From contig JAJDCB010000026.1 in the NCBI GenBank assembly GCA_029261065.1, positions 18,715 through 82,714 on the forward strand: DNA of 64,000 nucleotides, given 5' to 3'. The position numbers and the translations under genes are program-made. Below are positions 1,199 through 53,493 of the stretch, piece by piece (position 1 is the first letter of the stretch; the number at the start of each line of letters is the position of its first letter). The notes beneath the pieces are model-generated. The model was not told where the DNA came from, did not search any database, and was given only the letters and a program-made list of their open reading frames with translations. Source of the stretch: Candidatus Omnitrophota bacterium (GTDB taxonomy: Bacteria; Omnitrophota; Gorgyraeia; Zapsychrales; Zapsychraceae).

Positions 1199-3370
1199 CT
1201 ACGAGTCTTTTTTGTTAAATATATTTTTATCCATTTGAAGACCTCGGGTAATAAAATCATCGTAACATTTTGGAATATAACCTGTGGTTTGATAATCACC
1301 CAAGACGACACCACCTTCACCAATGCCTGCCTGCTTATAAACAAAAACATCTGCAAGCTCCAATTGAAACTCTTTATCTAACCCAAGCGTTTCAGTAATT
1401 CCGGTAATTTTTCGTGTCCCATCAGACATCCTATTAACATGCACAACAATTTGAATAGCTGAGGAAATCATCTCGTTAATAGCACGAACGGGAAGCTCGA
1501 CACCACTTAACAAAATGAGAGAATGCAACCTTGTAATCGCATCTCTTGTGGAGTTGGCATGAAGGGTTGTCATGGATCCATCGTGCCCCGTGTTCATAGC
1601 TTGAAGCATATCTAAAACCTCGCCCCCTCGACACTCACCAATGAGGATTCGGTCCGGTCTCATACGAAGACTGTTAACAAATAAATCTCTAATAGTAACA
1701 GCACCTCGTCCTTCAACGTTCGGTGGACGAGTTTCTAACCGCCCCCAATGACTCTTTTTCAAACGTAACTCAGCAGCATCTTCAATGGTTAAAATACGTT
1801 CCTCGTCGGGGATAAATTCCGAGATAACATTAAGCAGGGTTGTCTTACCAGCACCCGTTCCCCCCGATACAATAATATTTTTTCGCGTCAAAACACACGC
1901 TTTAATAAAATCTCTCATATCAACCGTTAAACTTTTATATTTTTCTAATAAGTCTGTTGATTCTAATTTTTCATGAGCAAATTTTCGAATCGTAATCATA
2001 GGACCATTTAATGAAAGTGGTGGGATAATGGCATTAACACGAGATCCGTCGGGTAAACGGGCATCAACCATAGGTGTTGACTCATCAATTCTTCTTCCAA
2101 GAGGGGCGATGATTCTATCAATAATGGCTCTCATCTTGTCATTCGATATAAATTTTCTATTTGTAAAAACAAGCTTACCGCTTTTCTCAACGTAAATTGT
2201 GTCTTTATTGTTAGCCATAATATCCGTGACTTCTGGATCTGCCAAAAACTCCTCCAAAGGTCCTAAACCAAGGGCTTCATTAACGATATCCTTTACTAAA
2301 CGCGTCCGCTCATCGTGTGAACCTATGGTTCCCCCACTTTCTTCCAATAAAAGGTTTCCAACAATTTCTTCTGAACTCTTCTTAACTTTTAGAGCGGCAC
2401 TCGGATCGCTTAATGTATCAATCGTAATACCATCTAAATTCAATCTTTCGACGAGCTTTTCATGAATTTTTTGTTTGAGTGCGAAAATTTCGGATTCTTC
2501 TGTTGTATACCCCGCATCCGGTCCCGGTCCCGAAGGTACACCTGTGGTAACACCAAACTTTTGCCAAAATTTATCTGGTTGCTCTAAACCTTCTGTTGTT
2601 CGTAATGTTTCGGTATCCGCTGGCTTTACAAAAATGGCTTCCTTAATTAGCATACTAATTGTTTTAACAAAAGCCTCTGTAACTTTACTTCGAGGGCTAT
2701 CAACGACACAAGGAATCCCTTGATTTAATGCAATTCCAACCGTTTTACCATCAGATGGAATGTGACTAAATATTTCACAAGGCAAGGCCGAACGCACTTC
2801 CTGCCAGGCAACACTACCTCGAGATTCAGAACGATTTAAGATAAGCTTAACCATCTTTAGAGGATATTGTAAGTTTTGCAAAACCTCCAAACACCACTTT
2901 ATTTGGTAAACAGCAAGAATGTCTGGGGTTGCGATTAGAAGAATGAGGTTGGAGTAATCAAGAACAGCAATCAAGTTTTCTGAAAAAGACTTACCTGCGT
3001 CGACAAAAATGTAATCATAGGCAGTGATAGCTTTTTTAAAAAATAATTTTATATTGTCTGGAGTAACTAAACTAATTTGTTGAGCATTTTTTATAGCTGG
3101 TAGGAAATCTATACCGCAGGAATGGGTTGTTACAAAACTTTTAACAGCATTTGGATCATCATTGCCTTCCAGTTGTCCTATGACATCAGCGATGCAATTT
3201 CTGGGTGATAAATTAAGCATGCGAGCCATGTCTTGGCTAGCCTGAAAATCAAGATCTATTAAAAGAACTTTTTTCCCTGTTAAGGACATTGCTGCCGCTA
3301 GATTAACAGTTGCAAAGGTCTTTCCAACACCCCCCTTAGAACTAAATATTGTTATAATTTTACAATCCAT
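1199..3370 (-). CDS. Fusion protein: N-terminal ParA/MinD-like (TadZ/CpaE-like) P-loop ATPase plus C-terminal CpaF/TadA (VirB11/GspE superfamily) secretion ATPase
   Basis: N-terminus has the deviant Walker [12 protein letters not shown] Gly/Pro linker follows ([14 protein letters not shown]). The C-terminal half has Walker [13 protein letters not shown] plus [18 protein letters not shown] and [14 protein letters not shown] motifs typical of CpaF/TadA. Confidence 0.8.
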
Positions 3371-3519
3371 AATCTAAAATTATGTTACAAACCTTTTGTT
3401 ATAATTGACTACTCATTTTTGATTTATATAATCTATCAAATGCGCAGTCTCTTTGCAAGTACGTTGTCTTCTTAGGTAAAAAGCTAGAAATTTCAGGTCT
3501 CTTTATAACAAATTAAATA

Positions 3520-5184
3520 CTAATTTTTTTGTAAACTATAAACAATAGGTATAGTGACATTTAATTCTTGCAGATCGGAGTTGGCGGGAAAACTAGAAAA
3601 TGGAGCAGAATTTTTTGCTGTTTCTAAAGCAATATCATCAAAAATATTGCGACCCGAAGATTCTTTAACCAAAGCAAAAGCAAGTGTTCCATCGTTAAGA
3701 ATAAGCATTCCAACCTTGACTGTTCCTTCCCATCCGTACCTTAAGGCTTCTTCTGGATAAACAACGCCTTTAGATATTTGTTTCTGAATGCTTCGCACAT
3801 AGGCTGTCATTTCGCGGGGAATCCCAGAATAATAAGGGGCAACATCTTTTATCGTTGGCGTCGCTAATCTTTGCGACTGAGAACTTTCATTACCCATCAT
3901 GGATGTCTTTGCGTTATCATCACTTTGTTCGTTATTATCTTCTTTTTCTGTAGATAAATCATTACGATACTTATGTAAAATACGAGGCGTTAGTGAAATA
4001 ACGATTTCCGTATCTGTTTCCGGCGTTGGCATAGATTTGCTACGGAAGAGAGCTCCGACGACAGGTACATTTCCTAGGAAAGGAACCTTTTTAATGCTCT
4101 CAGAACGTAATTCTCTAATTAATCCGGCCATAATAGTTGTTTGCCCATCGTCCAAAAATAAATGTGTCTGAGCACTTCTTGTGACAAAGGCGACATCATC
4201 ACCAACGGCATTGGCAGCATCAATATCGCTAATTTCAACACTCATTGAAATGTCAATTTTTTCTTTAATAATCGTTGGTGTAATCGACATAGATACACCA
4301 TATTCTTTATAAGCAACATTTGCTGATGTAACACCTTCAGATGTTGTGGTTGTTCTTACAGGAACTTCTCCACCTACTAAAAATGTTGCCTGCTCGCCAC
4401 TACTAACAAGTAGTTTTGGCTTTGACAACACTCGTCCTTTTCCTTCTTCTAATAAGGCATTAATTACGGACAATAAAGGCGTTGTGCGTCTAAAATCACC
4501 GATTTTAAAATAATCTGAAACGGAACCATCTAGGCTTGGCAATGTTTCCGCATATTTTAATATAATTCTACTATCGGCACCTGTTGACCAATCAAAACCT
4601 AAACTTTTAGTCAGAGTCGTATTAAGCTCTGTTACCTGCATATTAATTTCAAGTAAGTCGTCAATTTCTTCAAGTTTTGCCAGGTTTATAATATGATCGT
4701 CAAAAGGCGTTAAGATTTGATCTAAGTGATCTTCTCTATGTTCTGGAATGTACCCAGAAACAATAATTCGTCCTTCTTTTTTATTTATGTCTAAATCAAT
4801 CTTCGTAATTCTCGCGGAATCCAAAAGTTTTTGAATTCTCTTTTTAATATACTCTAGATCTTCTGCTGTTACATTAATGACAATTGGTCTCTTTCCATTT
4901 TCATCCCAAACAAATAAAGTTGTAATACCAACACTTTGCGCGACAAGTAAAATTTCATTGTCGTCGGCATCAACAATGTCGACAATATCTGGATCTGTTA
5001 TAGAAAGTCTTGTTAAGGTGTATACCTTTAATGTCACAAGTTCACCTTTGACCATTTGAACTTCATTTATATAGACGGTATCTATAACCTCGCTAAGTGC
5101 GTTTTTAGCAAGAAATGGCGCTGATACCATTGTGAGGACGATTAAAAAAGTAAAAAAGATCTGAGTATACGAATGTTTTTTCAT
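3520..5184 (-). CDS. CpaC/RcpA-type secretin with a C-terminal TonB_C-like domain
   Basis: Signal peptide, then a pilus-formation N-terminal (BON-like) region. Secretin core (KPKLLVSSGEQATFLVGGEVPV...). C-terminal ~95 aa has the TonB C-terminal pattern (YPEEALRYGWEGTVKVGMLILNDGTL...VKESSGRNIFDDIALETAKNSAPFSSFP...IPIVYSL). Confidence 0.75.
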   Translation of the reverse strand: MKKHSYTQIFFTFLIVLTMVSAPFLAKNALSEVIDTVYINEVQMVKGELVTLKVYTLTRLSITDPDIVDIVDADDNEILLVAQSVGITTLFVWDENGKRPIVINVTAEDLEYIKKRIQKLLDSARITKIDLDINKKEGRIIVSGYIPEHREDHLDQILTPFDDHIINLAKLEEIDDLLEINMQVTELNTTLTKSLGFDWSTGADSRIILKYAETLPSLDGSVSDYFKIGDFRRTTPLLSVINALLEEGKGRVLSKPKLLVSSGEQATFLVGGEVPVRTTTTSEGVTSANVAYKEYGVSMSITPTIIKEKIDISMSVEISDIDAANAVGDDVAFVTRSAQTHLFLDDGQTTIMAGLIRELRSESIKKVPFLGNVPVVGALFRSKSMPTPETDTEIVISLTPRILHKYRNDLSTEKEDNNEQSDDNAKTSMMGNESSQSQRLATPTIKDVAPYYSGIPREMTAYVRSIQKQISKGVVYPEEALRYGWEGTVKVGMLILNDGTLAFALVKESSGRNIFDDIALETAKNSAPFSSFPANSDLQELNVTIPIVYSLQKN

Positions 5185-5187
5185 GGT

Positions 5188-6033
5188 TTACAACTCTCTT
5201 CCTGCTCTAAAAATTTGAATGAATGGTTCCACTTCATCAGAATCATCGTCAGAAACCTCATTGACCACGATACTAGATTTTGGTAGATCCAACTCTGTTC
5301 CTTGTCTCTCAAGAACATAATCTGCAAGAGCATCCCAAGAGGCAACTTGCATTTCTTTAGTGGACCTTTCAGAAGGGGACCTTAGTGTTAATTGTAGGCG
5401 TCCAAAAGACTGCGCAAAGGATAGAAGCGAGGCTTCTTCTGGATTAACGGCAAGTGTTACATTTAATTGTTTAGTTTGTTGTTGTGTTTGATAGAGTACG
5501 GCGTTTCCAACGGGCTTAAAATTTGCCCCAACAGCAAGGACTTGAACATTTTGAAATAACACACTTGTTACTTTTGTGTTATCTTGTGATTCGCCTGGTT
5601 TAGGAATTTTTAAATGGCCAATGATGTCAACAAAATCACCTGGATTAATCAAACCGCCAACCGCAGACAACGAATCAAGCAATACGGTCATCGCTCGTTT
5701 CCCAGGCGGAGTTACTACTGAGAAAACAGTGCTGTCGACTATTTCTTTTGGTGCTCCCGGACCAACATTACCTGCTCCACGTGGTTGGGAGGCGAGATGT
5801 TTTTGTTGTTTTGCTAAAGAAACTTGATTTTGTTCTAACTTCTTTAGTTGTCCTCTTAATCCTTCAAATTCTTGAATAATTTTAGAGCTTTTCTTCTCAT
5901 AATTTTTTACGATAATCTTACGTTGTTCGTCAATACTACTCTTAACATATTGTGCTGTTAAATAGGCTGCAACCAAACCTAATCCTATCGCTAAAGCTAA
6001 TGTTGCAAACTGTTTTTTATTTTCAATATTCAT
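5188..6033 (-). CDS. CpaB/RcpC-like Flp pilus assembly protein
   Basis: N-terminal TM segment, coiled coil, and a C-terminal RcpC-like region (...LNVTLAVNPEEASLLSFAQSFGRLQLTLRSP). Stop overlaps the cpaC start (translational coupling). Confidence 0.55.
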   Translation of the reverse strand: MNIENKKQFATLALAIGLGLVAAYLTAQYVKSSIDEQRKIIVKNYEKKSSKIIQEFEGLRGQLKKLEQNQVSLAKQQKHLASQPRGAGNVGPGAPKEIVDSTVFSVVTPPGKRAMTVLLDSLSAVGGLINPGDFVDIIGHLKIPKPGESQDNTKVTSVLFQNVQVLAVGANFKPVGNAVLYQTQQQTKQLNVTLAVNPEEASLLSFAQSFGRLQLTLRSPSERSTKEMQVASWDALADYVLERQGTELDLPKSSIVVNEVSDDDSDEVEPFIQIFRAGREL

Positions 6034-6088
6034 AACATAAACCTCTTTACGTAAACTTTAAGATATTTGGACTGCCAAGAACATTAAT

Positions 6089-7048
6089 CTATTTCAATAG
6101 ATCGCTGTTTATCTCTACAGAACCTTTTTCTCTTAATTCATTGATATATTCAAGGATCACTTTTTGCTGCTTATCCAACGTAATTTGCTGAATAATTGTA
6201 TTTTTAACCTCTTCAAAAGGAATCTGTTCTCCGCCTTGCTTATCTTCCAGCTTAATGATGTAGTAACCATCCGGACCTTGAAAAACATCACTTGTCTCTC
6301 CCTCACTAAGAGCTAATAAAGGAGCAGCCATTTGCTCAAAAGGAACATCATTAATAAAACCCAAATCTCCGCCCTTAAGCGACGTGTCACTTTTTGAGTG
6401 CTCTCTTGCTAAAGATGCAAAGTCTTCACCACTTTGGATTTTTAACTTTATCTCATTTGCTTTGGATTCGGAATCGAGCTTGATTTCGCGAACTTGCCAT
6501 TGCCCAGGCTGTGTTATTAAATCTTTGTTGAGATCATAAAACTCTCTGGCCTCATCGCTCGATACTTTAACATCTTCGACAAGACCTCGAGCAAGTTCTC
6601 TAACAATAACTGTTCGGCGAAATTCTTCGACTGCGGCGACAATATCTTTACTATTGGCTAAGCCTGATCTTTCGGCCTCATTAACTAATAGCTGTTGTCT
6701 TACCAACTCTTCTAAGACTAACTCGCGAGCTTCTAAATTTGAAAGATCAAAATCTGGAACAACTTCTTTTAAGGCTTCTAGCCTATCATTAAATTCTTCT
6801 AAGGTTAAAGACCAATTGCCAACAACCGCAACCGTGTTGCCTGTTAAGGTAGGTTGACTTTTAGCTTTTTCTTTCGGTGCTTCGGACTGTTGTTTTTCTT
6901 CCTTGGCAGTATTCTTTTCTTCTGTTTTGGAAAAACGATCTTTGATGCTTTTAAAAACTTCACAACCCAACGAGCTTGTAACTGTAATAAAGCAAAAAAG
7001 AATTAAAAATGCGTGGTACTTGTGGTGCCCAATTTTATTCTTTTTCAT
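6089..7048 (-). CDS. Secreted parvulin-type peptidyl-prolyl cis-trans isomerase (SurA/PrsA-like)
   Basis: Signal peptide. The rotamase domain has FASLAREHSKSDTSLKGGDLGF...DVFQGPDGYYIIKL. First gene of the minus-strand cpaB-cpaC cluster. Confidence 0.7.
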   Translation of the reverse strand: MKKNKIGHHKYHAFLILFCFITVTSSLGCEVFKSIKDRFSKTEEKNTAKEEKQQSEAPKEKAKSQPTLTGNTVAVVGNWSLTLEEFNDRLEALKEVVPDFDLSNLEARELVLEELVRQQLLVNEAERSGLANSKDIVAAVEEFRRTVIVRELARGLVEDVKVSSDEAREFYDLNKDLITQPGQWQVREIKLDSESKANEIKLKIQSGEDFASLAREHSKSDTSLKGGDLGFINDVPFEQMAAPLLALSEGETSDVFQGPDGYYIIKLEDKQGGEQIPFEEVKNTIIQQITLDKQQKVILEYINELREKGSVEINSDLLK

Positions 7049-11144: not shown

Positions 11145-11636
11145 ATGTCAAAAAAATCGCCAAATTTTGGAATCAACGCATTCGGAATAATATTAATTGT
11201 TAGCTCTATTTCAAACCTTTTAACAATCGTTTTAAAGCAAGACTGGTATCTCAACGAACTTTATGCGCATTGGCCTGCATGGGCTGCCTGGTTAAGATAT
11301 GGGTTCTCGTTTTTTCAACGCATTTTGGGGCTAACAGCAGGATTTGGTCTTCTTTTCCGCAAGGAGTTCGGTCGAATAATTGCCCTCGTTATTGGTTGTT
11401 TTACTATTTCAACCGTGTATTGGAAGCACCCCTTTGTTTCCTATTTTCTTCATACTCATCGTGTTATGGAAGAACTCACACAAGCTGGCCTGCTCAACAC
11501 AAAAGTATCTCTCGGCACAATGACAATGATTGCCATGATTACTAATTGTCTGCTTGATATCGGCTTTTGTCTATTTCTTATTTACTTTTTAACACGCCCA
11601 GCAGTTGTGTCCATATTTAAAAGAAAAGATTCATGA
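11145..11636 (+). CDS. Small multi-pass membrane protein, unknown function
   Basis: Four predicted hydrophobic helices. Putative extended -10 promoter (TGaTACAAT) about 30 nt upstream. Confidence 0.35.
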   Translation: MSKKSPNFGINAFGIILIVSSISNLLTIVLKQDWYLNELYAHWPAWAAWLRYGFSFFQRILGLTAGFGLLFRKEFGRIIALVIGCFTISTVYWKHPFVSYFLHTHRVMEELTQAGLLNTKVSLGTMTMIAMITNCLLDIGFCLFLIYFLTRPAVVSIFKRKDS

Positions 11637-12232
11637 CCTTCTCATTCTTACAAGGCATTCCCTATCGTGATGTTTTCATTTATAATTTCTTAACATTTTT
11701 GAAATTAGGATATAGTTATGATTTGCGCTTTAAGATTGTTCAACCATACCTACATAAAGATGATGTCATTTTAGACGTGTGTGCCGGTTATGGCAGATTA
11801 AAAAAATTTATTCCTAAAGAATGCACCTACCATTGTATCGATGCTAGTCCGACATTTCTAAAAAAATTAAAACAAAAGGAAATACCCTCCTCTTTGCAAA
11901 ACATTAATGAAAAATGTGTCATTAATTATTCTCATTATACTGTCGTTGTAATGATTATCTCTTTGTGTCACTTTCCAAAATCTAGAATTCACACATTGTT
12001 AGACTCTTTTACAAAAATGGGCAACCGTGTGATTATCATTGAAGAGGTTATAAAAACACCCAAACAGAACCACACGTGGTTAAGAAAGATAATGAATTAC
12101 TTGTGCTGTGTAGATTATAACAAACACCTCTCTTTATTAACATTTGAAGAGTTTAAAGACATTCTATCAAAACATAATTACAAGGTAACTCGCTATAACA
12201 ATCGTTATAGCATAGGAACGTTTGGCGTATGA
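11633..12232 (+). CDS. Class I SAM-dependent methyltransferase
   Basis: VILDVCAGYGRL motif I. Overlaps neighbouring genes by 4 nt (operon). Confidence 0.5.
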   Translation: MTFSFLQGIPYRDVFIYNFLTFLKLGYSYDLRFKIVQPYLHKDDVILDVCAGYGRLKKFIPKECTYHCIDASPTFLKKLKQKEIPSSLQNINEKCVINYSHYTVVVMIISLCHFPKSRIHTLLDSFTKMGNRVIIIEEVIKTPKQNHTWLRKIMNYLCCVDYNKHLSLLTFEEFKDILSKHNYKVTRYNNRYSIGTFGV

Positions 12233-13338
12233 AGACTCCCTTGATACCTTGGGCTAAGCCCACCTTATTTGAAAAAGAAAAAGAATACATGTTAGCGGCC
12301 CTTGAGTCGACATGGATCTCAGATGGTAGCTTTGTTGATCAATTCGAAAAAAACTTATCTAATCTTCATAACAACCTTAAGTGCGTGACCACATCAAGTG
12401 GAACCGCAGCACTTCAACTTGCCTTGTTAGCTCTCAATATTGGCGAAGGTGATGACGTAATCGTACCAGGATACACTTTTGCTGGCCCCATCAATATGGT
12501 TTTGGCTCAAAAAGCCCGTCCCGTTTTTGTAGATATTAATCCTCATACATGGTGCATCGATGCTGCAACCCTTGAACTACACATAACACCACAAACTAAA
12601 GCTATCCTCCTCGTTCATATTTATGGTAATGTTTGCAACATAGATAGTATTCGCGAGATTGCCAACAAACACAACTTGGTCATAATCGAAGATGCCGCTC
12701 AAGCTATCTTTTCAAAATACAAAAATCAATATGCAGGAACCTTTGGCGACATCGGTTGTTTTAGCACGCAAGCTACAAAAACAATTACAACGGGCGAAGG
12801 TGGTTTTATTATGACGCCACATAAACACTTAGATGAAAAATGTCGCATTATCCGCAATCATGGCGTAACACCCAACAAAAAATATTGGCATGAACGTTTA
12901 GGTTTTAACTTTCGTTTAACAAATATACAGGCGGCGTTAGGTTGCGCCCAATTAGAAAACATGCGCTCTCTTACAAAAGACAAAAAAAGAGTGCATGTTC
13001 GATATAAAAACGAGTTAAAAGATTTTGAAAAAATTCGTTTTCAAGAATTTACCGATGATGTTGCTCCCGTCATTTGGAGTACCACCATTCAACTGCATGA
13101 TCAATTTACATCTACACAACGTAACACTATTATTGAAAAGATGCTGACGAATAACATAGAATGTCGTCCGGGATATTACGCGTTTAACGATATGCCCCTT
13201 TATAATGCCCCAGAGCTTAAAGAGTCCATTAAAGTCAGCCAAAGCACCATAAGTTTGCCTTCATATCCATCGTTGTCAGACAGCGACATTAATTTCGTTG
13301 CTCAAACACTCAAAAATATAATATCAAATGACTTATAA
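12229..13338 (+). CDS. DegT/DnrJ/EryC1/StrS-family PLP-dependent sugar aminotransferase (ArnB-like)
   Basis: Full-length similarity pattern (TSSGTAALQLAL...GDIGCFSTQATKTITTGEGG). Confidence 0.85.
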   Translation: MKTPLIPWAKPTLFEKEKEYMLAALESTWISDGSFVDQFEKNLSNLHNNLKCVTTSSGTAALQLALLALNIGEGDDVIVPGYTFAGPINMVLAQKARPVFVDINPHTWCIDAATLELHITPQTKAILLVHIYGNVCNIDSIREIANKHNLVIIEDAAQAIFSKYKNQYAGTFGDIGCFSTQATKTITTGEGGFIMTPHKHLDEKCRIIRNHGVTPNKKYWHERLGFNFRLTNIQAALGCAQLENMRSLTKDKKRVHVRYKNELKDFEKIRFQEFTDDVAPVIWSTTIQLHDQFTSTQRNTIIEKMLTNNIECRPGYYAFNDMPLYNAPELKESIKVSQSTISLPSYPSLSDSDINFVAQTLKNIISNDL

Positions 13339-14087
13339 TGATCGACAAAACTTCAAAAACTGTCTCAATCGTCCTCCCTGCTTATAACGAATGTGAGTCT
13401 ATCTCTCCTCTTATTCAAACCATTCAATCAGAACTAAATGATACACGTTTAGAAATTATCGTAGTTGATGATGCTAGCCCTGACTTTACTGGTAAAAAGA
13501 TTGAAGATACTCATCTAAAAAATGTGACGGTACTTTTTAATGCACCACGAATAGGTTTGGCTAAATCTATTCGTCGAGGTATTGAAAAAACAACAGGTGA
13601 TTATATTGTCATTATGGACTCTGATGGTAACCATCAACCCCAATATTTAAAATCTATGATTCAAAAACTAAATCAGTATGATTGTATTAGCGCATCACGT
13701 TTTCTCAATAACGAGGTTCAACACAAAACATCACAAAGTCATGCGGTATCCAACCCCTGGCGCTTTCGGACAACGAAGATATTTAATAAAATCACTCGGT
13801 CTCTTCTTAAGGGAACCATTACAGATTATTTTTATGGATTTCTTATCATTAACAAAAAATGTTTAGAATTATGCGACTATACTCATATATTCTATGGTTA
13901 CGGTGATTATTGTATGCGGTTACTAAACGCTTTACAAAAACAAAACGTCAACATTTCCGAAATTCCCGTCATTAACGGCCCTCGTCTTGCTGGCGTAGGT
14001 AACAAAAACTTTGCTCCCATATTTGCTCAGTATTCTAACGAGGTTCTAAAAACATTTTTTAATAATTCAAAAAGGTCTCATGTATAA
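13338..14087 (+). CDS. Family 2 glycosyltransferase (DPM1/ArnC/GtrB-like polyprenyl-phosphate sugar transferase type)
   Basis: SIVLPAYNE...VVDDASPD...MDSDGNHQP motifs. Confidence 0.75.
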   Translation: MIDKTSKTVSIVLPAYNECESISPLIQTIQSELNDTRLEIIVVDDASPDFTGKKIEDTHLKNVTVLFNAPRIGLAKSIRRGIEKTTGDYIVIMDSDGNHQPQYLKSMIQKLNQYDCISASRFLNNEVQHKTSQSHAVSNPWRFRTTKIFNKITRSLLKGTITDYFYGFLIINKKCLELCDYTHIFYGYGDYCMRLLNALQKQNVNISEIPVINGPRLAGVGNKNFAPIFAQYSNEVLKTFFNNSKRSHV

Positions 14088-15324
14088 AGAAGTGCATCAA
14101 TGCCGCATTTGTGGTAACAAAAACCTAATACCCATCATCGATTTAGGGGAACATCATTTAACAAGTTTATTTCCTCGTACAAAATCGACCCCCATTCCCC
14201 TGGCACCACTTACATTGATTAAATGTTCTGGCAATACAGGCTGTGGTTTTGTGCAACTGAAACATACCGTTGAGCCTAAATACTTATATACCGATAATTA
14301 TGGCTACCGCTCCGGACTTAACATAACCATCGTCAATCATCTTAAAGAAGCCTTTAAATATTTAACAACGATTGTTTCTCTTAAAGACAAGGATCTTATC
14401 ATCGATATCGGTAGTAACGATGGGACTTTTTTAAATTTCTTTGAACAAAAATACGATTTGTTGGGTATTGATCCTTTAATAAAAAAATTTGAAAACTGTT
14501 ACACTGAAGGCACCCATCTCATATCGGACTTCTTCACAGAAGATACCATTCATTCGTACCTCAAAAACCGTAGAGCTAAAATTATCACCTCTTTCTCTAT
14601 GTTTTATGACGTCGACAATCCTCTCGCGTTTATGAAAACCATAACGGAATCCTTGGCTAATAATGGTGTCTGGTTATTGGAACAAAACTATTTACCAACG
14701 ATGTTGAAACAAACAGCATACGATACTATTTGCCATGAACACATCGGTTATTATTGTCTTAAACAAATCCAGTGGATGGCAGATAAAGTTGATTTAAAAG
14801 TTGTTGATGTATTTTTAACGGATCTTAATGGCGGGAGTTTTTCGGTAACACTTGCACATAAAAGCTCTTCTCTAGAGGTAGCCACAAAAAAAATCGAGAA
14901 CTTTGTAAAAAACGAGGAAGAATTCTTTAACGATGCCAGCTTAATATCTTCATTCACCCATCGCGTTGCCCAACACAAAATTGACATGAAACAATTGTTA
15001 AAAGAATTGAAGCATCAAAACAAAAAAGTTGTAGGCTTTGGGGCCTCTACAAAGGGAAACGTTATTCTTCAATATTGCCAGGTTACCCCTGAAGAATTAA
15101 CTTGTATCGTTGAGGTCAACGAAGAAAAATTTGATATGCTAACACCAGGCACTCACATCCCAATCGTATCCCAAGAAAAACTAAAAGATCTTAACCCCGA
15201 TTACATATTAGTCCTCCCTTGGCATTTAAAAAACTTTATTCTCAAAGAAGGAGCTCGCTTATTCCCTCCAAAAGCTTCCATTATCTTTACGCTACCGAAT
15301 ATTGAAATTGCAAAAAATAACTAA
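14080..15324 (+). CDS. Sugar C-methyltransferase-like protein (N-terminal zinc ribbon plus SAM methyltransferase plus C-terminal domain)
   Basis: CRICGNKN...C..C zinc ribbon. DIGSNDGTF SAM motif. About 410 aa, typical of the TylC3/NovU-type family. Confidence 0.55.
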   Translation: MYKEVHQCRICGNKNLIPIIDLGEHHLTSLFPRTKSTPIPLAPLTLIKCSGNTGCGFVQLKHTVEPKYLYTDNYGYRSGLNITIVNHLKEAFKYLTTIVSLKDKDLIIDIGSNDGTFLNFFEQKYDLLGIDPLIKKFENCYTEGTHLISDFFTEDTIHSYLKNRRAKIITSFSMFYDVDNPLAFMKTITESLANNGVWLLEQNYLPTMLKQTAYDTICHEHIGYYCLKQIQWMADKVDLKVVDVFLTDLNGGSFSVTLAHKSSSLEVATKKIENFVKNEEEFFNDASLISSFTHRVAQHKIDMKQLLKELKHQNKKVVGFGASTKGNVILQYCQVTPEELTCIVEVNEEKFDMLTPGTHIPIVSQEKLKDLNPDYILVLPWHLKNFILKEGARLFPPKASIIFTLPNIEIAKNN

Positions 15325-15341
15325 AGCTTCTTACGGATTCA

Positions 15342-17282
15342 TTATTTTCGATTAAGTTTATAGAGAGCAAAAAGATCCGAAATATAAACAAGCGATAATG
15401 TTTTGGTTGGTTTTGGCGCTTCTCCTCGAAAAAAGACTATATAATCGACATTATAATCCCGAATCGCTCGCATGACAGCTTGCTTGTACGATGCGCGCGG
15501 TGCGTTAAATTTAAAACTACCTAAATGCTCTAGCTTAACCAAATAGTCTTTAATCGATGCGATATCAAGAGCAAACGTTCCTGTGTCGGCTTCGGAAAAA
15601 ACTAAACTGCGTTGGGCATGCAAACGAAACGTATTGTAAGGAATCTCTGGAAATAAAAAGAGGGCGTCTTTCTCTGTGTGTGTGCGGATATGTTTGCCCA
15701 GCACCTCAACATCTTTATGAATAAGTTCAATAGGGGTTCGGGCACGCCTCATATCCTTAATATGACGCCCTGTGTATCCACTCAAAAAAACACACAGCGG
15801 AATAAGTAGCATTATACGAAGAATCATTACCTTAGCCCCCTGCGGAACAAAATAATACACAAAGGCCGATAAAAGCATCAGCCAGCTGACAAGTACAAAG
15901 AGAGGCGATTGAAAAGGATTCGCGTGAACCAGCTGGCACATTTTGATAAGACCCCAAATAATAATACCTGTGCTAAAAAGCACGCACAGACAAAGCTTGG
16001 GCCAAACACGTATATAATATTTCAATCCCCATCCACGAAGAGCCTCTGCTGGCATACTTGATGATACCCCTTCTTTATTTACTTGCACGACACCTGTAAA
16101 AATCCAAATCGGTAAAAGTAATATTAAAAAACCAATAGAACTAAAATCTTTGTTCGTAAATGTCAGCATAGCAAAACCCATCACTACCCCTAACAAAAGA
16201 TTTTGTCTCTCTCCTAAAGCCTTCCAACATCCACTGATATATATCCCGATAAGAATAAATGAAAGAATACCGATTTGACGATTTAAAAGTAAACACAACA
16301 CTGTTAAATTTGGATGTATGTAGCTAGCCCAAAATTGCAGAACCAAACTTAAGAAAATAATAACACCCATAACATGAAACTTAGGTTGAGAGCGAAACTC
16401 TTTTGAAATTAATAAACTTGTTCCGTAAAGAGTAATAAGAAAAATTATAAATTTTAAACTAATCAAACCTTGAAAAAATGAACTAAAGGCCTCTGATAAC
16501 GGAAGCCTGCCGAAAAAGAAAAAGTAGGGGGCATAGTGTCTTATAAGCTTAAAAAATTCCGCAAACTCTTCTGGACCAAGTCCAGCCGACGTCCCTGTTT
16601 TGGACCTCAGATAAAAAATGACAACCGGCAAACTAAACAGCGTAAACAGGCCTATGGATTCTAAACATACACGAAATTTGTGTCGCAACTTTAATAAAAG
16701 ATAAGTAACAAGATAAAACATCGGAAAGAGTGCAAAGACAAGATGAATATTCATGGTAACACCTAAAATGATTGACGCTGTACGGTATCTGCTTTTAAAG
16801 AAATAATATAATCCGGCAAACATAGGCGCCAAGGCAAACTCAGCGTGCGAAAATGTCCGATACAAAAACATCTCAGAACGAAGAACGACCATAAACCCTA
16901 AAACACAGAACAAACTTAAAACGCGCTTTTTAGTTATCAAAAGCCAAAATTTATACATCCAAAAAAACATTAACAGACGGGAAACAAAAAAGAGAAGGGC
17001 GTAAACAGGTTTAATGTGCTCAGTTAGGACGATTCTACCCAAACTTTTGTAAAAAAAGGTAAGGTAATGAGCATGTTTCGTCTGTACGTAATCATCACGT
17101 GGATACAACTCCGGATCAATCGCCATCTTTAAAAACGGAATCTCAATCAACTGATCATCCATAGCATAACGATACCCGTGACTTATGTAAAAAATTCCGG
17201 TTATAAGCAAGGCGAAAAATAAGGGGTGGGATAAAATAGAAAAAAATGAGTGTTTTTTTAATTTCATTGGACTTCTAAACAT
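15342..17282 (-). CDS. Large polytopic membrane protein, possible GT-C-fold glycosyltransferase (ArnT/PMT-like)
   Basis: More than 12 predicted TM helices. Acidic DD motif in the first extracytoplasmic loop (YRYAMDDQLIEIPF). C-terminal soluble domain. Convergent with the sugar-modification operon. Confidence 0.35.
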   Translation of the reverse strand: MFRSPMKLKKHSFFSILSHPLFFALLITGIFYISHGYRYAMDDQLIEIPFLKMAIDPELYPRDDYVQTKHAHYLTFFYKSLGRIVLTEHIKPVYALLFFVSRLLMFFWMYKFWLLITKKRVLSLFCVLGFMVVLRSEMFLYRTFSHAEFALAPMFAGLYYFFKSRYRTASIILGVTMNIHLVFALFPMFYLVTYLLLKLRHKFRVCLESIGLFTLFSLPVVIFYLRSKTGTSAGLGPEEFAEFFKLIRHYAPYFFFFGRLPLSEAFSSFFQGLISLKFIIFLITLYGTSLLISKEFRSQPKFHVMGVIIFLSLVLQFWASYIHPNLTVLCLLLNRQIGILSFILIGIYISGCWKALGERQNLLLGVVMGFAMLTFTNKDFSSIGFLILLLPIWIFTGVVQVNKEGVSSSMPAEALRGWGLKYYIRVWPKLCLCVLFSTGIIIWGLIKMCQLVHANPFQSPLFVLVSWLMLLSAFVYYFVPQGAKVMILRIMLLIPLCVFLSGYTGRHIKDMRRARTPIELIHKDVEVLGKHIRTHTEKDALFLFPEIPYNTFRLHAQRSLVFSEADTGTFALDIASIKDYLVKLEHLGSFKFNAPRASYKQAVMRAIRDYNVDYIVFFRGEAPKPTKTLSLVYISDLFALYKLNRK

Positions 17283-20015: not shown

Positions 20016-22798
<2,783 letters not shown>

Positions 22799-24085: not shown

Positions 24086-25429
24086 TTATGAATCTCGTTG
24101 TAAAGTATGGGATAACTCTAAAAGGATATTTTTCATCGAAGAATTTTTACCTTCTTCTCCTTCAATCTTTTTACAAGAATGCAACACAGTTGTGTGGTCT
24201 TTACCTCCAAAGGCATAGCCGATCTCTGGCAAAGACATGTGTGTTAACTTACGCGTGAGAAACATAGCTACTTGGCGCGCGTTTACGATATTTTTATTTC
24301 GCTTTTTAGCCCGCAATTCTGTTACCGGAATATTAAAATATTCAGAGACACATTTTTGCACCTGCTCAACGCTAATCGTTTTGGTTGTTTCTTTAACCAT
24401 ATCTTTAAGAACTACTTTGGCCATGTCTAATGTAATGTCTGTATCATCTAATAAAGAATATGCAGCAACACGAATGAGGGCTCCCTCCAATTCGCGAATG
24501 TTTGTTTGAATTTGTTCGGCAATAAAAATAATAACCTCATCTGGAATGTTGGCCGGTTCCAACTCTGCTTTTTTTCTTAAAATGGCAACGCGCGTTTCAA
24601 AATCTGGAGGTTGAATATCTGTAATAAGTCCCCAGGCAAAACGGGAACTTAACCTCTCCTCTAGATTTGCAATTTCTTTTGGAGGCCTATCAGATGTTAT
24701 GATGATTTGTTTGTGGTTGTTGTGTAGATTATTAAAGGTGTGGAAAAATTCTTCTTGTGTTGATTCTTTACCAGCAATAAATTGAATATCATCAATAAGT
24801 AAAACATCTATCTCTCTATATTTTTTTCTAAAGGCAACAGTTGACCGATGACGAATGGCATCTATCAGTTCGTTTGTGAACTTCTCCGACGACATATAAC
24901 AAATTTTTATATCTGGAGATATCTCTCGAATTTTTTGTGTAACAGCCTGCATAAGATGAGTTTTTCCTAAGCCCACTTGGCCATAAATAAAAAGCGGATT
25001 ATATGCTTTTGCTGGCGATTCGGCAACGGCAAGACTTGCCGCACAGGCGAAACGATTAGATGGGCCGACAACAAAGTTATCAAAATTAAATCGAGTATTT
25101 AAGTTTTGGGAAATGTTTGGGCCCTTTTCTGGAACGACTTGTTGGGCTTCATTTAGTCGTAAGTGAGACTCGTCTTCTAAAATTTGGGAGTTAACCAAAT
25201 ATTCTATTTGAACGCTATACGTGGCGAGATTGTTGACGGTTTCTTGAATATAGGATTCGTAATGTTCTACAATCCAATTTTTAAAGAAATCGTCGGGGGT
25301 TTCGATAATAAGAGTTTCAGGATCTTTTTCTTTAACCTGAATAGTTGAAAACCACGTTTCGTAAGAAGTGGTTCCTACCTTATTTTTAATTTCCTCTTTG
25401 GCTTTATCCCAAATTTCTGAAAGACTCAT
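24086..25429 (-). CDS. dnaA: Chromosomal replication initiator DnaA
   Basis: AAA+ Walker A (GQVGLGKTHLMQA), sensor motifs, and C-terminal DNA-binding domain (VAMFLTRKLTHMSLPEIG). Confidence 0.95.
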   Translation of the reverse strand: MSLSEIWDKAKEEIKNKVGTTSYETWFSTIQVKEKDPETLIIETPDDFFKNWIVEHYESYIQETVNNLATYSVQIEYLVNSQILEDESHLRLNEAQQVVPEKGPNISQNLNTRFNFDNFVVGPSNRFACAASLAVAESPAKAYNPLFIYGQVGLGKTHLMQAVTQKIREISPDIKICYMSSEKFTNELIDAIRHRSTVAFRKKYREIDVLLIDDIQFIAGKESTQEEFFHTFNNLHNNHKQIIITSDRPPKEIANLEERLSSRFAWGLITDIQPPDFETRVAILRKKAELEPANIPDEVIIFIAEQIQTNIRELEGALIRVAAYSLLDDTDITLDMAKVVLKDMVKETTKTISVEQVQKCVSEYFNIPVTELRAKKRNKNIVNARQVAMFLTRKLTHMSLPEIGYAFGGKDHTTVLHSCKKIEGEEGKNSSMKNILLELSHTLQRDS

Positions 25430-43764: not shown

Positions 43765-43999
43765 CGAGATGATACGAAATTTTATGTTTGTAATTTTTAC
43801 GCTGTGTTATAATTAATTTATAGTCCCTGCTGTGCTCGTGGGGAGGAGCTTTAAAAAGAACCAATAATCTTATTTGGGTCGCTAAACTTTTCGGGTGTCC
43901 GTGGATGTCCGAAAGAGGTACCCACCTGGTGAGCCTGGTTCACCTTTGGGCTTTTCTAACGGCATAAGCGGGGATTTTTTTATCGCGGAATTCCTTTTT

Positions 44000-47827: not shown

Positions 47828-47848
47828 ATTAAAATCCTACCTTTGATT

Positions 47849-48649
47849 ATGAACATTCTTTGCATTGGCGATATCATGGGCAAACCAGGTCGAGAGGCCA
47901 TAATCCAGTTGCTTGATGGTATCAAAAAAGAATATAAAATTGATTGCGTAATCGCTAATGCAGAAAATGCTGCAGGTGGTTCGGGTTTAACGTCGCGTTT
48001 GGCTAAACAATTTTTTAAGGCTGGGTGCGATGTTTTGACGTTAGGTGATCACACGTGGGATCAAAAAGAGCTGGAAGAATATTTGGATGTAGAGCGGAAT
48101 GTTATACGCCCGGCAAACTTTCCGGAAGGAGCTCCTGGTAAAGGATGGGTTATCAAAGAATCTGATAAGGGTGTTAAGGTCGGTGTTGTTAATTTGTTAG
48201 GACGGGTATTTATGCGCTATCAGGTTGGATGTCCGTTTCTGGCATTAGATGCTATTATTAAAGAGATCAAAAAAGAAACCTCAATTATTATTGTTGATAT
48301 GCACGCTGAAACAACGAGTGAAAAAGTTGCTATTGGCCATTACGCTAATGGTAGGGTCTCTGGAGTCGTGGGCACACATACACATATTCAAACAGCAGAC
48401 GATACCATTCTTTCCCAAAAGACAGCATACATCACAGACATGGGGATGACAGGTCCTTACGACTCCGTTATTGGCCAAAACAAAGATATCATTATCAAAC
48501 GATTTTTGACAAGCCGTCCCATTCGCTTTGGAGTGGCTAAAGATGATATTAGACTTTGTGGCGTTGTCATCGAAGTTGATGAAAAAAATGGTCAGGCCAA
48601 GAAAATCACGCGATTGCAGAAAAAGTACGTAGAGGCCAAAGACAAATAG
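47849..48649 (+). CDS. ymdB: YmdB-like metallophosphoesterase (2',3'-cyclic-nucleotide phosphodiesterase family)
   Basis: MNILCIGDIMGKPGR N-terminus and rny-ymdB gene pair. ATG start preferred over the track's TTG. Confidence 0.8.
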   Translation: MNILCIGDIMGKPGREAIIQLLDGIKKEYKIDCVIANAENAAGGSGLTSRLAKQFFKAGCDVLTLGDHTWDQKELEEYLDVERNVIRPANFPEGAPGKGWVIKESDKGVKVGVVNLLGRVFMRYQVGCPFLALDAIIKEIKKETSIIIVDMHAETTSEKVAIGHYANGRVSGVVGTHTHIQTADDTILSQKTAYITDMGMTGPYDSVIGQNKDIIIKRFLTSRPIRFGVAKDDIRLCGVVIEVDEKNGQAKKITRLQKKYVEAKDK

Positions 48650-48770
48650 AAGTGCTATAAACGACATAGGGTTACGTATTATTTTCCCCAGATTTATTTT
48701 TTTTGTCATTATAAATATGTTATAATTTAACAGCAGCTTCAATTTTATAGGCCTGATTAAGGAGTCTTTG

Positions 48771-49151
48771 ATGAGTAAATGGGAAGGTTTAGATCGAAGA
48801 AAGTTTCCACGTGTTAGTTTTCCTTGCCTTGTCGTTATTGGTGATGACGGTAAAAAAGGGGTTATTTTAACACATACAGAAAATTTAGGAATTGGAGGCG
48901 TTTGTGTCATATTAAAAGAAGACATAAAGCTTTTTAGTGGAGTTCGATTGGAATTAGACTTATTAGATATGCAGCCACACATCAAGTGCAAGGGCAAGGT
49001 TGTTTGGAACGTCAAACGAAAGATGGACCAAAAGAAAAAGCCTTTATTTTTCGATATCGGAGTTGAGTTTCAAGACATGAGTAGTTCAGACCTTAAACGG
49101 TTAGAACAGATAGTTAAAAAAATTGAACGTAAACATGGTGTTGTTTCATAA
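48771..49151 (+). CDS. PilZ-domain protein (putative c-di-GMP receptor)
   Basis: RRKFPR (RxxxR) and NLGIGG (D/NxSxGG) motifs. Confidence 0.6.
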   Translation: MSKWEGLDRRKFPRVSFPCLVVIGDDGKKGVILTHTENLGIGGVCVILKEDIKLFSGVRLELDLLDMQPHIKCKGKVVWNVKRKMDQKKKPLFFDIGVEFQDMSSSDLKRLEQIVKKIERKHGVVS

Positions 49152-49215
49152 AACTTCCCCACGGATGTTTCATTAGTTCACCTCAAACATAAATATTAAT
49201 TTTTAGGATACCATT

Positions 49216-50499
49216 ATGGTTAAAGTTAGATTTGCGCCTAGTCCAACAGGATTTTTGCACATTGGTGGTGCTAGAACCGCGTTGTTTAATTGGATGTATG
49301 CCCGAGTGCAAAAGGGTAAGTTTGTTTTAAGAATTGAAGATACGGATCAAGTGCGTTCTAAAAAAGAATTTGAAGAAGAAATTTTGGATAGCATGAAGTG
49401 GTTGGGTCTTGATTGGGATGAAATTTATTATCAAAGCGAGCGCTTTGACATTTACAAAGAACATGCAACAAAACTTCTGGACGAAGGTAAGGCCTACAAA
49501 GAGGGTGAGGCCATTATTCTTAAGATTCCTCAACAAGAAATAAAACTATACGATTTGATTCGTGGAGAAATTACATTTGATTCGGCTCTAATAAAAGATC
49601 AGGTTTTAATGAAATCAGACGGCTCTCCAGCGTATAGTTTTGCTTGTGTTATGGACGATGCTCTTATGGAGATATCTTGCGTTATCCGAGGAGAGGATCA
49701 CATATCAAACACGCCTAAACAAATGATGATCTATAACGCTCTTGGTTTTAAAATTCCAAAATTTGCTCATCTTCCTCTTATTATGGGTGAAGATGGTTCT
49801 CGTCTTTCAAAAAGGACGGGAGCTGTGGCTGTCAGCGATTATCGTAAAGAAGGTTTTTTGCCGGACGCTTTGGTTAATTATCTTATGTTGCTTGGTTGGT
49901 CCCCTGGAAACAATCAGGAAGTTGTGTCTCTTGATGCCGCTGTAAAAAAGTTTTCGATTAAAAAGGTCAATAAAGCTGCTGCAATTTTTTCAATAGATAA
50001 ATTAAATTGGATAAATGGTCAATATTTAAAAAAGATTGATACAGACAAATTAGTTGATCTTTTAATTCCTTTTTTGCAAGAGAAAGGATATGTAGATCAG
50101 GATGTAGATAAATCTTCACTTAAGAGTATTGTGGAATTATTTAAAGGTCGTTTATCTAAGTTGGTGAATTTTATTGAATGGGCAGATTTTGCCTTTATAG
50201 AAAAGCCTAATTTTGATAAGGAAGCCCAAGAAAAACATTTAGCCCAAGATCGCAGTAAGGAGTTTAAAATTTTGATAGAAAGATTTTCAGCCCTCGATTC
50301 TTTTGATAAAGATAGCATTGAAGAGACGTATAAGACAGTTATGGAAGAGTTAGGCTTAAAGCCCGCTGAGTTGGTTCATGCTATTCGTGTTGCGGTCACA
50401 GGCCGTGCGATTGGGCCAAGTTTATTTGAGTGTATTGCCCTTTTAGGCAAAGAGAAATCTATCCAACGGCTGGAAGCCGCTTTTAGCTGTGTTGGATAA
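49216..50499 (+). CDS. gltX: Glutamyl-tRNA synthetase (short form)
   Basis: FAPSPTGFLHIGGARTA (HIGH) and LSKR (KMSKS-type) motifs. Confidence 0.85.
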   Translation: MVKVRFAPSPTGFLHIGGARTALFNWMYARVQKGKFVLRIEDTDQVRSKKEFEEEILDSMKWLGLDWDEIYYQSERFDIYKEHATKLLDEGKAYKEGEAIILKIPQQEIKLYDLIRGEITFDSALIKDQVLMKSDGSPAYSFACVMDDALMEISCVIRGEDHISNTPKQMMIYNALGFKIPKFAHLPLIMGEDGSRLSKRTGAVAVSDYRKEGFLPDALVNYLMLLGWSPGNNQEVVSLDAAVKKFSIKKVNKAAAIFSIDKLNWINGQYLKKIDTDKLVDLLIPFLQEKGYVDQDVDKSSLKSIVELFKGRLSKLVNFIEWADFAFIEKPNFDKEAQEKHLAQDRSKEFKILIERFSALDSFDKDSIEETYKTVMEELGLKPAELVHAIRVAVTGRAIGPSLFECIALLGKEKSIQRLEAAFSCVG

Positions 50500-53486: not shown

Positions 53487-53493
53487 AAACTCT

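Follow-up and report, generated by a model that had tools for sequence, protein, structure and literature searches.

A DUF6798 membrane protein with a predicted GT-C fold beside a probable branched amino-sugar cassette in Omnitrophota: a candidate three-component glycosylation system

Introduction

Bacteria of the phylum Omnitrophota have not been cultured, are often ultra-small and may depend on hosts. In a 64,000-nucleotide stretch of an Omnitrophota genome (contig JAJDCB010000026.1 of GenBank assembly GCA_029261065.1; hereafter the window), positions 11,145 to 17,282 hold five overlapping plus-strand open reading frames (ORFs) for a small membrane protein of 163 amino acids (aa), a 199-aa S-adenosylmethionine (SAM)-dependent methyltransferase, a 369-aa sugar aminotransferase, a 249-aa family 2 glycosyltransferase (GT2) and a 414-aa sugar C-methyltransferase, which are met by a convergent gene for a 646-aa polytopic membrane protein of the DUF6798 family. 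The locus raises the question of whether these six genes work together to attach a modified sugar to a molecule outside the cytoplasm, and by which kind of system. A first-pass annotation, made from the sequence, had likened them to the Arn pathway of lipid A modification with 4-amino-4-deoxy-L-arabinose (Ara4N) and had compared the 646-aa protein with glycosyltransferases of the GT-C type; all six ORFs and all of its domain calls held when checked against Pfam and NCBIfam.

We judge the odds to be about even that the region encodes a Gtr/Arn-type three-component system of extracytoplasmic glycosylation, which would be analogous, not orthologous, to ArnB, ArnC and ArnT. The three components of this paradigm are a polyprenyl-phosphate sugar synthase, a small flippase and a GT-C enzyme (PMC11127046).

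Results

Fold and Conserved Residues of the DUF6798 Protein

The sole Pfam match of the 646-aa protein lies near its C-terminus, where residues 530–563 score 27.2 bits against the 61-position DUF6798 model (PF20604), a borderline value at a cut-off of 26.9. A word-indexed protein search returned only five relatives, even with a profile query, and an exhaustive profile search was needed to recover the family, which then comprised 1565 cluster representatives at E < 1e-3. Each of the 60 relatives in the alignment hits PF20604 (best 3e-17), and two of them, both distant, reach Pfam GT-C models, one PMT_2 (3e-6) and the other Glucos_trans_II/GtrII (1e-5). No close relative of the 646-aa protein turned up in a metagenome scan, and we found no mention of DUF6798 in the literature.

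The AlphaFold2 model built from the 60-sequence alignment has a predicted local distance difference test score (pLDDT) of 91.1 and a predicted TM-score (pTM) of 0.91, and it supersedes a poor earlier model made from five sequences (pLDDT 62.9). When it was compared with the PDB by Foldseek, ranks 1–17 were all occupied by GT-C enzymes, the top matches with a probability of 1.0. The best of these are the C-mannosyltransferase DPY19 (1.7e-4) and ArnT (5f15; 4.4e-4, TM-score 0.49 on the target), and further GT-C matches include yeast and human STT3, AftA and ALG3. On the strength of this model, the 646-aa protein is very probably a GT-C-fold enzyme. The likeness to ArnT and PMT proposed by the first-pass annotation therefore stands for the fold and fails for sequence membership of GT83 or GT39: the protein has no PMT or PMT_2 match in Pfam, alignment of the family profile with Escherichia coli ArnT by hhalign is not significant (probability 0.2, E 0.29), and a search of PDB sequences with the same profile reached only designed helical proteins (E ~0.1) and no solved GT-C.

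In the model, the first transmembrane (TM) helix (residues 20–34) is followed by a 52-residue loop (35–86) that holds three short helices (44–55, 64–72 and 77–84), then by ~14 further TM helices (~15 in total) and an alpha/beta domain of ~130 residues. Cytoplasmic loops are rich in lysine and arginine and alternate loops are neutral or acidic, both in the 646-aa protein and in the mean of its 60 relatives, a positive-inside pattern that indicates an N-in, C-out topology with the C-terminal domain outside. The acidic DD motif that had been noticed in the first external loop is D42-D43, which lies eight to nine residues past TM1 in a loop that the positive-inside rule, applied across the 60 relatives, does place outside the cytoplasm. 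D43 is kept in all 31 close relatives and is D or N in 28 of 29 distant ones, and D63 is kept in 59 of 60 aligned sequences. Both residues share the outer face with N178, H180, P219, the C-terminal domain and the invariant R335, which is located where a TM helix reaches the outer side. A GT-C active site would be expected to show such an arrangement, and the conserved residues may have a catalytic role.

It is very improbable that the 646-aa protein is no transferase at all but works in transport, as a polymerase or ligase, or as a scaffold of GT-C-like fold without catalytic activity, the role of PIGU in the glycosylphosphatidylinositol transamidase. PIGU does appear among the weak fold matches (ranks 18–19), and both the missing sequence-level match to any solved GT-C and the loss of several conserved C-terminal residues in this copy (see below) would suit such a role. 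However, the transporter folds MurJ, MATE and MFS, the class whose appearance the first-pass annotation had named as contrary evidence, reach a Foldseek probability of at most 0.18 against 1.0 for catalytic GT-Cs; the whole family keeps D43, D63, N178, H180 and R335 on the outer face; and members of the family persistently adjoin a DPM1-like GT2.

A Recurrent GT2–DUF6798 Pair in Omnitrophota

Relatives of the 646-aa protein were found in 75 genome loci (here numbered with the prefix L), all from metagenome-assembled genomes (MAGs) labelled Omnitrophota or with the placeholder name 'Planctomycetales'. In 49 of the 68 Omnitrophota loci that had enough upstream sequence, the DUF6798 gene is directly preceded, on its own strand, by a GT2 of 234 aa without TM segments. 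This 'core' GT2 is 73–85% identical across the phylum; its only PDB matches are dolichol-phosphate-mannose synthases (DPMS) and ArnC, and its best family matches are AglJ (2.8e-28), dolichyl-phosphate hexose transferase and ArnC. The core locus is ordered tRNA-Thr(tgt), tRNA-Tyr(gta), tRNA-Gly(tcc), 234-aa GT2, DUF6798, gpsA and tRNA-Pro(ggg), and the loci with this block are listed in Table 1. The linkage of GT2 and DUF6798 is thus genuinely recurrent in Omnitrophota at the level of the family. That DUF6798 proteins would use a polyprenyl-phosphate-linked sugar as donor is suggested indirectly, by the adjacency of DPM1/AglJ-like GT2s and by the invariant R335.

Two other DUF6798 paralogues are found in sugar clusters. 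One (L010) combines DUF6798 with a GT2 resembling AglJ, PpgS and ArnC, a DegT aminotransferase, a dTDP-glucose-4,6-dehydratase-like gene, a methyltransferase and a second GT2; the other (L003) combines it with a GT2, a methyltransferase and a B12-radical-SAM gene. The copy in the window is a divergent paralogue at a different genomic position, with 26–39% identity (best aligned segment) to all others.

Several of these loci show further features. The second GT2 of the L010 sugar cluster is adjoined by two tandem polytopic membrane proteins of ~615 aa, 60% identical to each other and with ~12 TM segments each, that match nothing in Pfam or NCBIfam and could represent additional transferases of lipid-linked sugars, likewise uncharacterised. 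In L016 and L027, DUF6798 comes straight after the three tRNA genes with no GT2 between them. In L061, from the MAG with the greatest synteny to the window, the place of the GT2 is taken by a class I SAM methyltransferase (237 aa, Methyltransf_11) whose gene overlaps that of DUF6798, with crcB after the DUF6798 gene. L001 contains, upstream, a cysteine-rich ORF of 457 aa with four thrombospondin type-1-like repeats (SPWGPCS..C, SPCSTNCGPG..T), and two shorter JGI gene calls in a different reading frame overlap with it. A link to DPY19-like C-glycosylation of proteins through this ORF was considered and rejected, as the ORF occurs in no other DUF6798 locus.

The GT2 and the Small Membrane Protein of the Cassette

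Consecutive plus-strand ORFs overlap by 4, 4, 1 and 8 nt, which indicates that the five genes form one translationally coupled operon. The 249-aa GT2 matches PF00535 (1.5e-27) and has its best PDB matches in the Pyrococcus DPMS (PfDPMS, 5mlz; 1.3e-16) and ArnC (9hwj; 1.1e-9), so that its earlier assignment to the DPM1/ArnC type holds. Polyprenyl-phosphate GT2s are recognized by a GT-A domain with a DxD motif and a C-terminal (E)IPVxxxxRxxGxSK-like motif. P14, N17, E18, D44, D96, P101, R216 and G219 are retained when the window GT2 is aligned with ArnC of E. coli and the GT2s of Omnitrophota; D44/D45 and D94-x-D96 also align with ArnC, and R216 and G219 fall within a C-terminal 'EIPV....R..G..K' stretch. 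By these motifs, it is a probable candidate for a polyprenyl-phosphate sugar synthase. The likeness stays at the level of the family, as the ArnC model NF007986 gives 43 bits at a cut-off of 529, and the PpgS model of NCBIfam matches both this GT2 (1.9e-11) and that of L010 (1.6e-16) far below equivalog cut-offs. No hydrophobic segment was found in the 249-aa protein.

The 163-aa protein has about four hydrophobic segments by hydropathy, and neither Pfam nor NCBIfam gave a match when all hits with E ≤ 1 were allowed. It has only five homologues in 5.8 billion proteins, and a metagenome scan with its alignment yielded two short contigs only. In L080–L083 and L086 it is always followed by the genes for a methyltransferase and a DegT aminotransferase, to which the GT2 and C-methyltransferase genes may be added, and its conserved motifs are WYxxExYxHWPxW and TxSTVYWKHP. 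From its position, the protein is a candidate flippase for a lipid-linked sugar or a candidate membrane partner of the TM-less GT2.

Sugar-Tailoring Enzymes and Probable Product

The 414-aa protein combines a Methyltransf_13 zinc ribbon (Cys8/11/49/55) with Methyltransf_23 and Methyltransf_14 domains, and it matches over its full length the D-mycarose 3-C-methyltransferase MtmC (4rv9; 3.4e-45), TcaB9 (~1e-36) and KijD1 (4e-34). These matches agree with its first-pass description as a zinc-ribbon sugar C-methyltransferase. By its domains, it belongs to the TylC3/TcaB9 type of nucleoside diphosphate (NDP)-hexose C-methyltransferases, an assignment at the level of enzyme type. In NDP-4-keto-6-deoxyhexoses, enzymes of this type methylate the carbon that neighbours the 4-keto group.

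The 369-aa aminotransferase (DegT_DnrJ_EryC1, 1.2e-108) has its best PDB match in the Caulobacter GDP-perosamine synthase (Per; 3bn1, 3.6e-76), which it matches over its full length (residues 4–364), and a far weaker one in ArnB (4.7e-42). Lys184 aligns with the pyridoxal 5′-phosphate (PLP) lysine of both enzymes. The protein scores below every equivalog cut-off of NCBIfam, with the LegC and PseC models scoring comparably and the ArnB model NF008658 giving 201 bits at a cut-off of 631. Identity of the window aminotransferase and GT2 to E. coli ArnB and ArnC is 28–29%. Of the DegT/ArnB-type label it had been given, the DegT part is retained and the ArnB part is not. Because of the resemblance to perosamine synthase, the nucleotide of the sugar is suggested to be GDP.

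The 199-aa protein (Methyltransf_23, 1.4e-8) carries the SAM motif VLDVCAGYG and shows 47% identity with the corresponding protein of the L080 cassette; no PDB relative was found. It is a candidate N- or O-methyltransferase of the sugar. C-methylation, 4-transamination and N- or O-methylation make up a coherent route that, as far as enzyme families can tell, probably leads to a branched 4-amino-4,6-dideoxyhexose. No N-acyltransferase or N-formyltransferase is present, which indicates that the amine may stay free or become methylated and would hence be cationic. A comparison of the product with 3-C-methyl-perosamine or kansosamine is conceivable, and is our own speculation.

Does the Cassette Work with the GT-C Protein?

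The five plus-strand genes are a conserved cassette. Their order (small membrane protein, methyltransferase, DegT aminotransferase, GT2 and C-methyltransferase) is kept in L080–L082 at 47–55% aa identity and partly recurs in L085 and L086. The identified genes that flank the cassette in the window are housekeeping genes; the gene map shows no glycan-backbone genes upstream of the operon, and neither an initiating phosphoglycosyltransferase nor Wzx/Wzy-like genes adjoin it, which fits a decorating system of the side-branch kind.

Several results weigh against reading the six genes as a single system. In L080–L082, no DUF6798 homologue lies within 5–10 kb of the cassette, which is followed there by a B12-radical-SAM gene, DUF212, YkuD transpeptidase, accA and rlmN, so that the pairing in the window is possibly coincidental. 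The cassette GT2 is only ~25% identical to the core GT2 that stands beside DUF6798. Its NCBIfam matches are mixed (PgfS, EpsD, PgaC, PpgS, ArnC and AglJ) and all far below cut-offs, and for this reason its lipid-phosphate assignment is probable rather than proven. The 163-aa protein matches no flippase family (GtrA, SMR/EamA or MATE). The entry substrate is another difficulty: the absence of sugar 4,6-dehydratase and epimerase genes from the cluster, already pointed out by the first-pass annotation, was confirmed, and a tblastn search with an Omnitrophota 4,6-dehydratase as query found none across the 64-kb window either, so that this enzyme must be encoded elsewhere. Finally, the 646-aa copy has lost residues of the C-terminal domain that are near-invariant in the family (W525V, Q529G, G551T, S556A, R/K565A, F572L, W580Y and N635S), while the residues of loop 1 and the TM face are retained. 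These substitutions suggest an altered acceptor specificity or a relaxed constraint on the C-terminal domain. R583K is also among the changes of this copy at sites near-invariant in the 59 other relatives.

It could thus be that the cassette and the DUF6798 gene are unrelated neighbours, which we regard as somewhat unlikely. The cassette would then be complete in itself and make a modified NDP-amino sugar. Its GT2 would be an ordinary Leloir GT2 working directly on an acceptor at the cytoplasmic face, or would supply a lipid donor to a GT-C encoded elsewhere, and the DUF6798 paralogue would use another donor, for example the product of the phylum-wide 234-aa core GT2. Besides the cassettes of L080–L082 and the non-lipid GT2s among the NCBIfam matches, the arrangement of the genes speaks for this explanation: they are convergent and not co-transcribed, with 17 nt between the two stop codons, and on its own strand the DUF6798 gene follows gyrB, gyrA and tRNA-Glu. 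Moreover, neither a GT2 nor sugar genes surround most of the accessory DUF6798 paralogues (L002, L016, L027, L036 and others). On the other hand, the adjacency of GT2 and DUF6798 is strongly recurrent across the phylum, L010 and L003 place DUF6798 beside GT2, DegT, dehydratase and methyltransferase genes, and the best structural relatives of the window GT2 are lipid-phosphate enzymes. A short TM-less GT2 accompanied by a small membrane protein and by no glycan-assembly genes also fits a conventional polysaccharide pathway poorly. The pairing of operon and GT-C assumed in the first-pass annotation is weakened by the cassettes of L080–L082 and supported by the recurrent GT2–DUF6798 linkage; in the window its basis is adjacency, together with the analogous core pair and clusters of L003 and L010, and not a conserved linkage to this cassette.

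The B12-binding radical-SAM gene that directly follows the C-methyltransferase gene in L080, L081 and L082 may add a methylation step absent from the window. The corresponding gene in the DUF6798–GT2 cluster of L003 encodes a distant homologue (26% identity).

Candidate Acceptors and the Arn Analogy

The hints as to what the 646-aa protein would modify are weak and conflicting. Fusions in distant relatives point to a glycan, one paralogue lies close to lptD, and the enzymes matched by the fold modify proteins, lipid A or arabinan. The fusions are found in relatives of ~980–1140 aa (P0077, P0096, P0117, P0118, P0120, P0122, P0132 and P0137), in which a C-terminal Glyco_hydro_10 (GH10)-like TIM barrel follows the DUF6798 membrane and C-terminal domains; this hints that the family may act on an extracytoplasmic glycan. 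Some DUF6798 paralogues are located among envelope-sugar genes. In L004, an accessory paralogue has on one side an oxidase of the FAD_binding_4 family, to which DprE1 belongs, and on the other side genes for a ROK kinase, LptD, two UDP-glucose/GDP-mannose dehydrogenases and epimerase/dehydratase-like proteins; lptD is two genes away. Omnitrophota relatives encode LptD and with it transport of lipopolysaccharide (LPS), so that LPS is made by these bacteria.

A true functional analogue of Arn, in which the GT-C would add a cationic amino sugar to a phosphate of lipid A or its core and thereby alter surface charge and resistance to cationic peptides, is in our view improbable. The combination of an aminotransferase, a DPM1/ArnC-like GT2 and a GT-C follows Arn logic, the fold of the 646-aa protein has ArnT among its best matches, the amine could stay cationic where no N-acyltransferase acts, and the lptD genes fit an LPS acceptor. 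Yet the analogy with Ara4N modification drawn by the first-pass annotation found no support in the gene content: tblastn of the E. coli K-12 Arn proteins against the window returned nothing for ArnA, ArnE and ArnT and only chance-level matches for ArnD and ArnF (E 0.3–0.8). The aminotransferase and GT2 score far below the ArnB and ArnC cut-offs, the hhalign comparison with ArnT is not significant, and GT-Cs that modify proteins or glycans (DPY19, STT3 and AftA) match the fold equally well. In addition, 6-deoxy and C-methyl chemistry is unlike that of Ara4N, and the GH10-like fusions point to glycan substrates over lipid A.

Genomic Setting

Upstream of the operon are housekeeping genes for a 2-hydroxyacid dehydrogenase, a GST and a nitrilase, together with mdh. 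A promoter scan gave no useful signal, with 27 promoter-like sites where 23 would be expected, and a scan for terminators between the convergent genes gave none that was convincing. The coordinates of the six genes and of the other features are given in Table 1.

Table 1. Coordinates of the region, of other features of the window and of related loci.
Feature	Sequence	Coordinates	Strand	Family or remark
Small membrane protein, 163 aa	Window	11145–11636	+	First cassette gene; no family
Class I SAM-dependent methyltransferase, 199 aa	Window	11633–12232	+	Methyltransf_23
Putative PLP-dependent NDP-4-keto-sugar 4-aminotransferase, 369 aa	Window	12229–13338	+	DegT_DnrJ_EryC1
GT2 of the DPM1/ArnC/AglJ kind, 249 aa	Window	13338–14087	+	Glycos_transf_2 (PF00535)
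Putative zinc-ribbon SAM-dependent NDP-hexose C-methyltransferase, TylC3/MtmC/TcaB9 type, 414 aa	Window	14080–15324	+	Methyltransf_13, _23, _14
DUF6798 polytopic membrane protein, 646 aa	Window	15342–17282	−	PF20604; predicted GT-C fold
Apparent Tad/Flp pilus assembly genes	Window	1199–7048	−	Upstream of the region
DciA-domain gene, 94 aa	Window	22514–22798	−	Origin region
dnaA	Window	24086–25429	−	Origin region
6S/SsrS RNA match	Window	43821–43978	+	Partly overlaps the start of a predicted 485-aa ORF at 43895
Collinear block	Window	47843–59248		Contig JAHFFT01 (L061)
Core block	L001	8679–13134		Likewise L006, L009, L011, L021, L024, L033, L043, L051, L053, L059, L063, L067, L071, L072, L075
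Cysteine-rich ORF, 457 aa	L001	6954–8327	−	Thrombospondin type-1-like repeats
B12-radical-SAM homologue	L003	12460–13833	−	In DUF6798–GT2 cluster
Accessory DUF6798 paralogue and neighbours	L004	64–10853		Near lptD
Tandem membrane protein	L010	16560–18407	−	No Pfam or NCBIfam match
Tandem membrane protein	L010	18397–20217	−	No Pfam or NCBIfam match
Methyltransferase and DUF6798	L061	9288–11884		Methyltransferase in place of GT2
B12-radical-SAM gene	L080	8933–10399		Also in L081 and L082

The window also contains a replication-origin region, with dnaA, dnaN, gyrB, gyrA and a DciA-domain gene all on the minus strand; the cumulative GC skew is lowest near 24 kb, and the plus strand then carries yidC and parA/parB-like genes. 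A match to 6S/SsrS RNA scores 50.5 bits at an Rfam gathering score of 46.4. The apparent Tad/Flp pilus genes encode a ParA/CpaE-like protein of 723 aa, a putative secretin of 554 aa, an RcpC/CpaB-domain protein and a SurA-like rotamase. Another block of window genes is collinear with the Omnitrophota MAG contig of L061 (51–80% aa identity), which, together with the labels of the 75 DUF6798 loci, places the window in this phylum.

Discussion

Proposed Pathway

If the six genes do act together, the pathway might run as follows. A 4,6-dehydratase encoded elsewhere in the genome would make an NDP-4-keto-6-deoxyhexose, the nucleotide perhaps being GDP. The TylC3/TcaB9-like enzyme would, going by the chemistry of its family, C-methylate the carbon beside the keto group; the Per-like aminotransferase, in which Lys184 is present, would convert the 4-keto into a 4-amino group; and the 199-aa methyltransferase would add an N- or O-methyl group. 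At the inner face of the membrane, the TM-less DPM1/ArnC-like GT2, judged by homology and motifs, would load the sugar onto polyprenyl phosphate. From its position in the operon, the 4-TM protein might anchor this GT2, flip the lipid-linked sugar or do both. The 646-aa GT-C, through D43 and D63 of loop 1 together with N178, H180 and R335 at the outer face, would then move the sugar to a periplasmic acceptor, for which LPS, another glycan or a protein are candidates.

Taken jointly, the results allow a broader picture, which we put forward tentatively and rate as somewhat less likely than not to hold in all its parts. DUF6798 would be an unrecognized GT-C family that has no CAZy family, and a near-universal envelope enzyme of Omnitrophota tied to a DPM1-like GT2 in a tRNA-flanked locus. 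The paralogue in the window would have been recruited to a mobile cassette that decorates the surface with a lipid-carried, C-methyl-branched and possibly cationic 4-amino-6-deoxyhexose. To our knowledge, no C-methyl-branched 4-amino-6-deoxyhexose is known to be delivered on a lipid carrier.

If this picture is true, DUF6798, with its ~1,500 cluster representatives, would acquire a role open to testing, the transfer of lipid-linked sugars, and would become the founder of a new GT family, and the phylum-wide pair of GT2 and GT-C would probably make a core envelope modification. The range of sugars delivered by polyprenyl phosphate would extend to branched-chain methylated amino sugars, a chemistry otherwise met in antibiotic and mycobacterial glycolipid pathways. 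The locus also carries a caution for annotation, namely that Arn-like gene logic (an aminotransferase, a GT2 and a GT-C) does not by itself imply lipid A modification.

Comparison with Known Systems

Membrane anchoring of GT2s of this class is achieved either by C-terminal TM helices, as in GtrB, ArnC and PfDPMS, or by a separate subunit, as in human DPM1 with DPM3. The TM-less GT2 of the window shares its cassette with a co-conserved 4-TM protein that may have the anchoring role of DPM3. In the Gtr systems of Shigella and Salmonella (GtrA/GtrB/Gtr*) and the GT136 pentofuranose systems (PMC11127046), as in the window, a DPM1-like GT2, a small membrane protein and a GT-C are encoded in compact loci without glycan-backbone genes. 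In those systems the GT2 charges a polyprenyl phosphate, the small protein is proposed to flip it and the GT-C finishes the transfer on the extracytoplasmic side. However, GtrB has C-terminal TM helices that the window GT2 lacks, the small protein of the window belongs to neither the GtrA nor the SMR/EamA family and has no Pfam match, and the GT-C comes from the uncharacterised DUF6798 family. The locus adds an aminotransferase, a C-methyltransferase and a further methyltransferase to this plan, and its GT-C gene is convergent and unlinked to the cassette in relatives.

With Arn (PmrHFIJKLM) the region shares a DegT-family aminotransferase, an ArnC-like GT2, a GT-C and a possibly cationic amino-sugar product. 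In contrast to Arn, it has no ArnA, ArnD, ArnE or ArnF, its aminotransferase is nearer to GDP-perosamine synthase, its enzymes imply 6-deoxy and C-methyl chemistry, and its GT-C is without sequence similarity to ArnT.

In PpgS/Rv3779, which adds galactosamine to mycobacterial arabinogalactan, FlmF2/FlmK of Francisella and LgmA/LgmB of Bordetella, a GT2 makes a polyprenyl-phosphate-linked amino sugar that a GT-C then transfers outside the cytoplasm. These systems use UDP-N-acetylhexosamines, from which the N-acetyl group is removed on the lipid carrier, whereas the amine of the window sugar would arise by transamination of a 4-keto group and the sugar would also be C-methylated. For this part of the route, the actinomycete pathways of branched deoxy-amino sugars (TylC3, MtmC, TcaB9 and KijD1) and Per/RfbE offer clear homologues of the C-methyltransferase and the aminotransferase; C-methylation beside a 4-keto group followed by transamination is chemically coherent. 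Those pathways carry an in-cluster 4,6-dehydratase and end in transfer to an aglycone or O-antigen by soluble GT-B or GT-A enzymes, while the only transferases of the window region are the DPM1-like GT2 and the GT-C.

The core locus of Omnitrophota has the same GT-C family and the same class of TM-less DPM1/AglJ-like GT2, but there the GT2 and DUF6798 genes are adjacent and co-directional and are accompanied by no sugar-tailoring genes. The region is thus best described as known logic with unstudied parts, a system of the three-component kind that builds on an uncharacterised GT-C family and a branched amino-sugar cassette.

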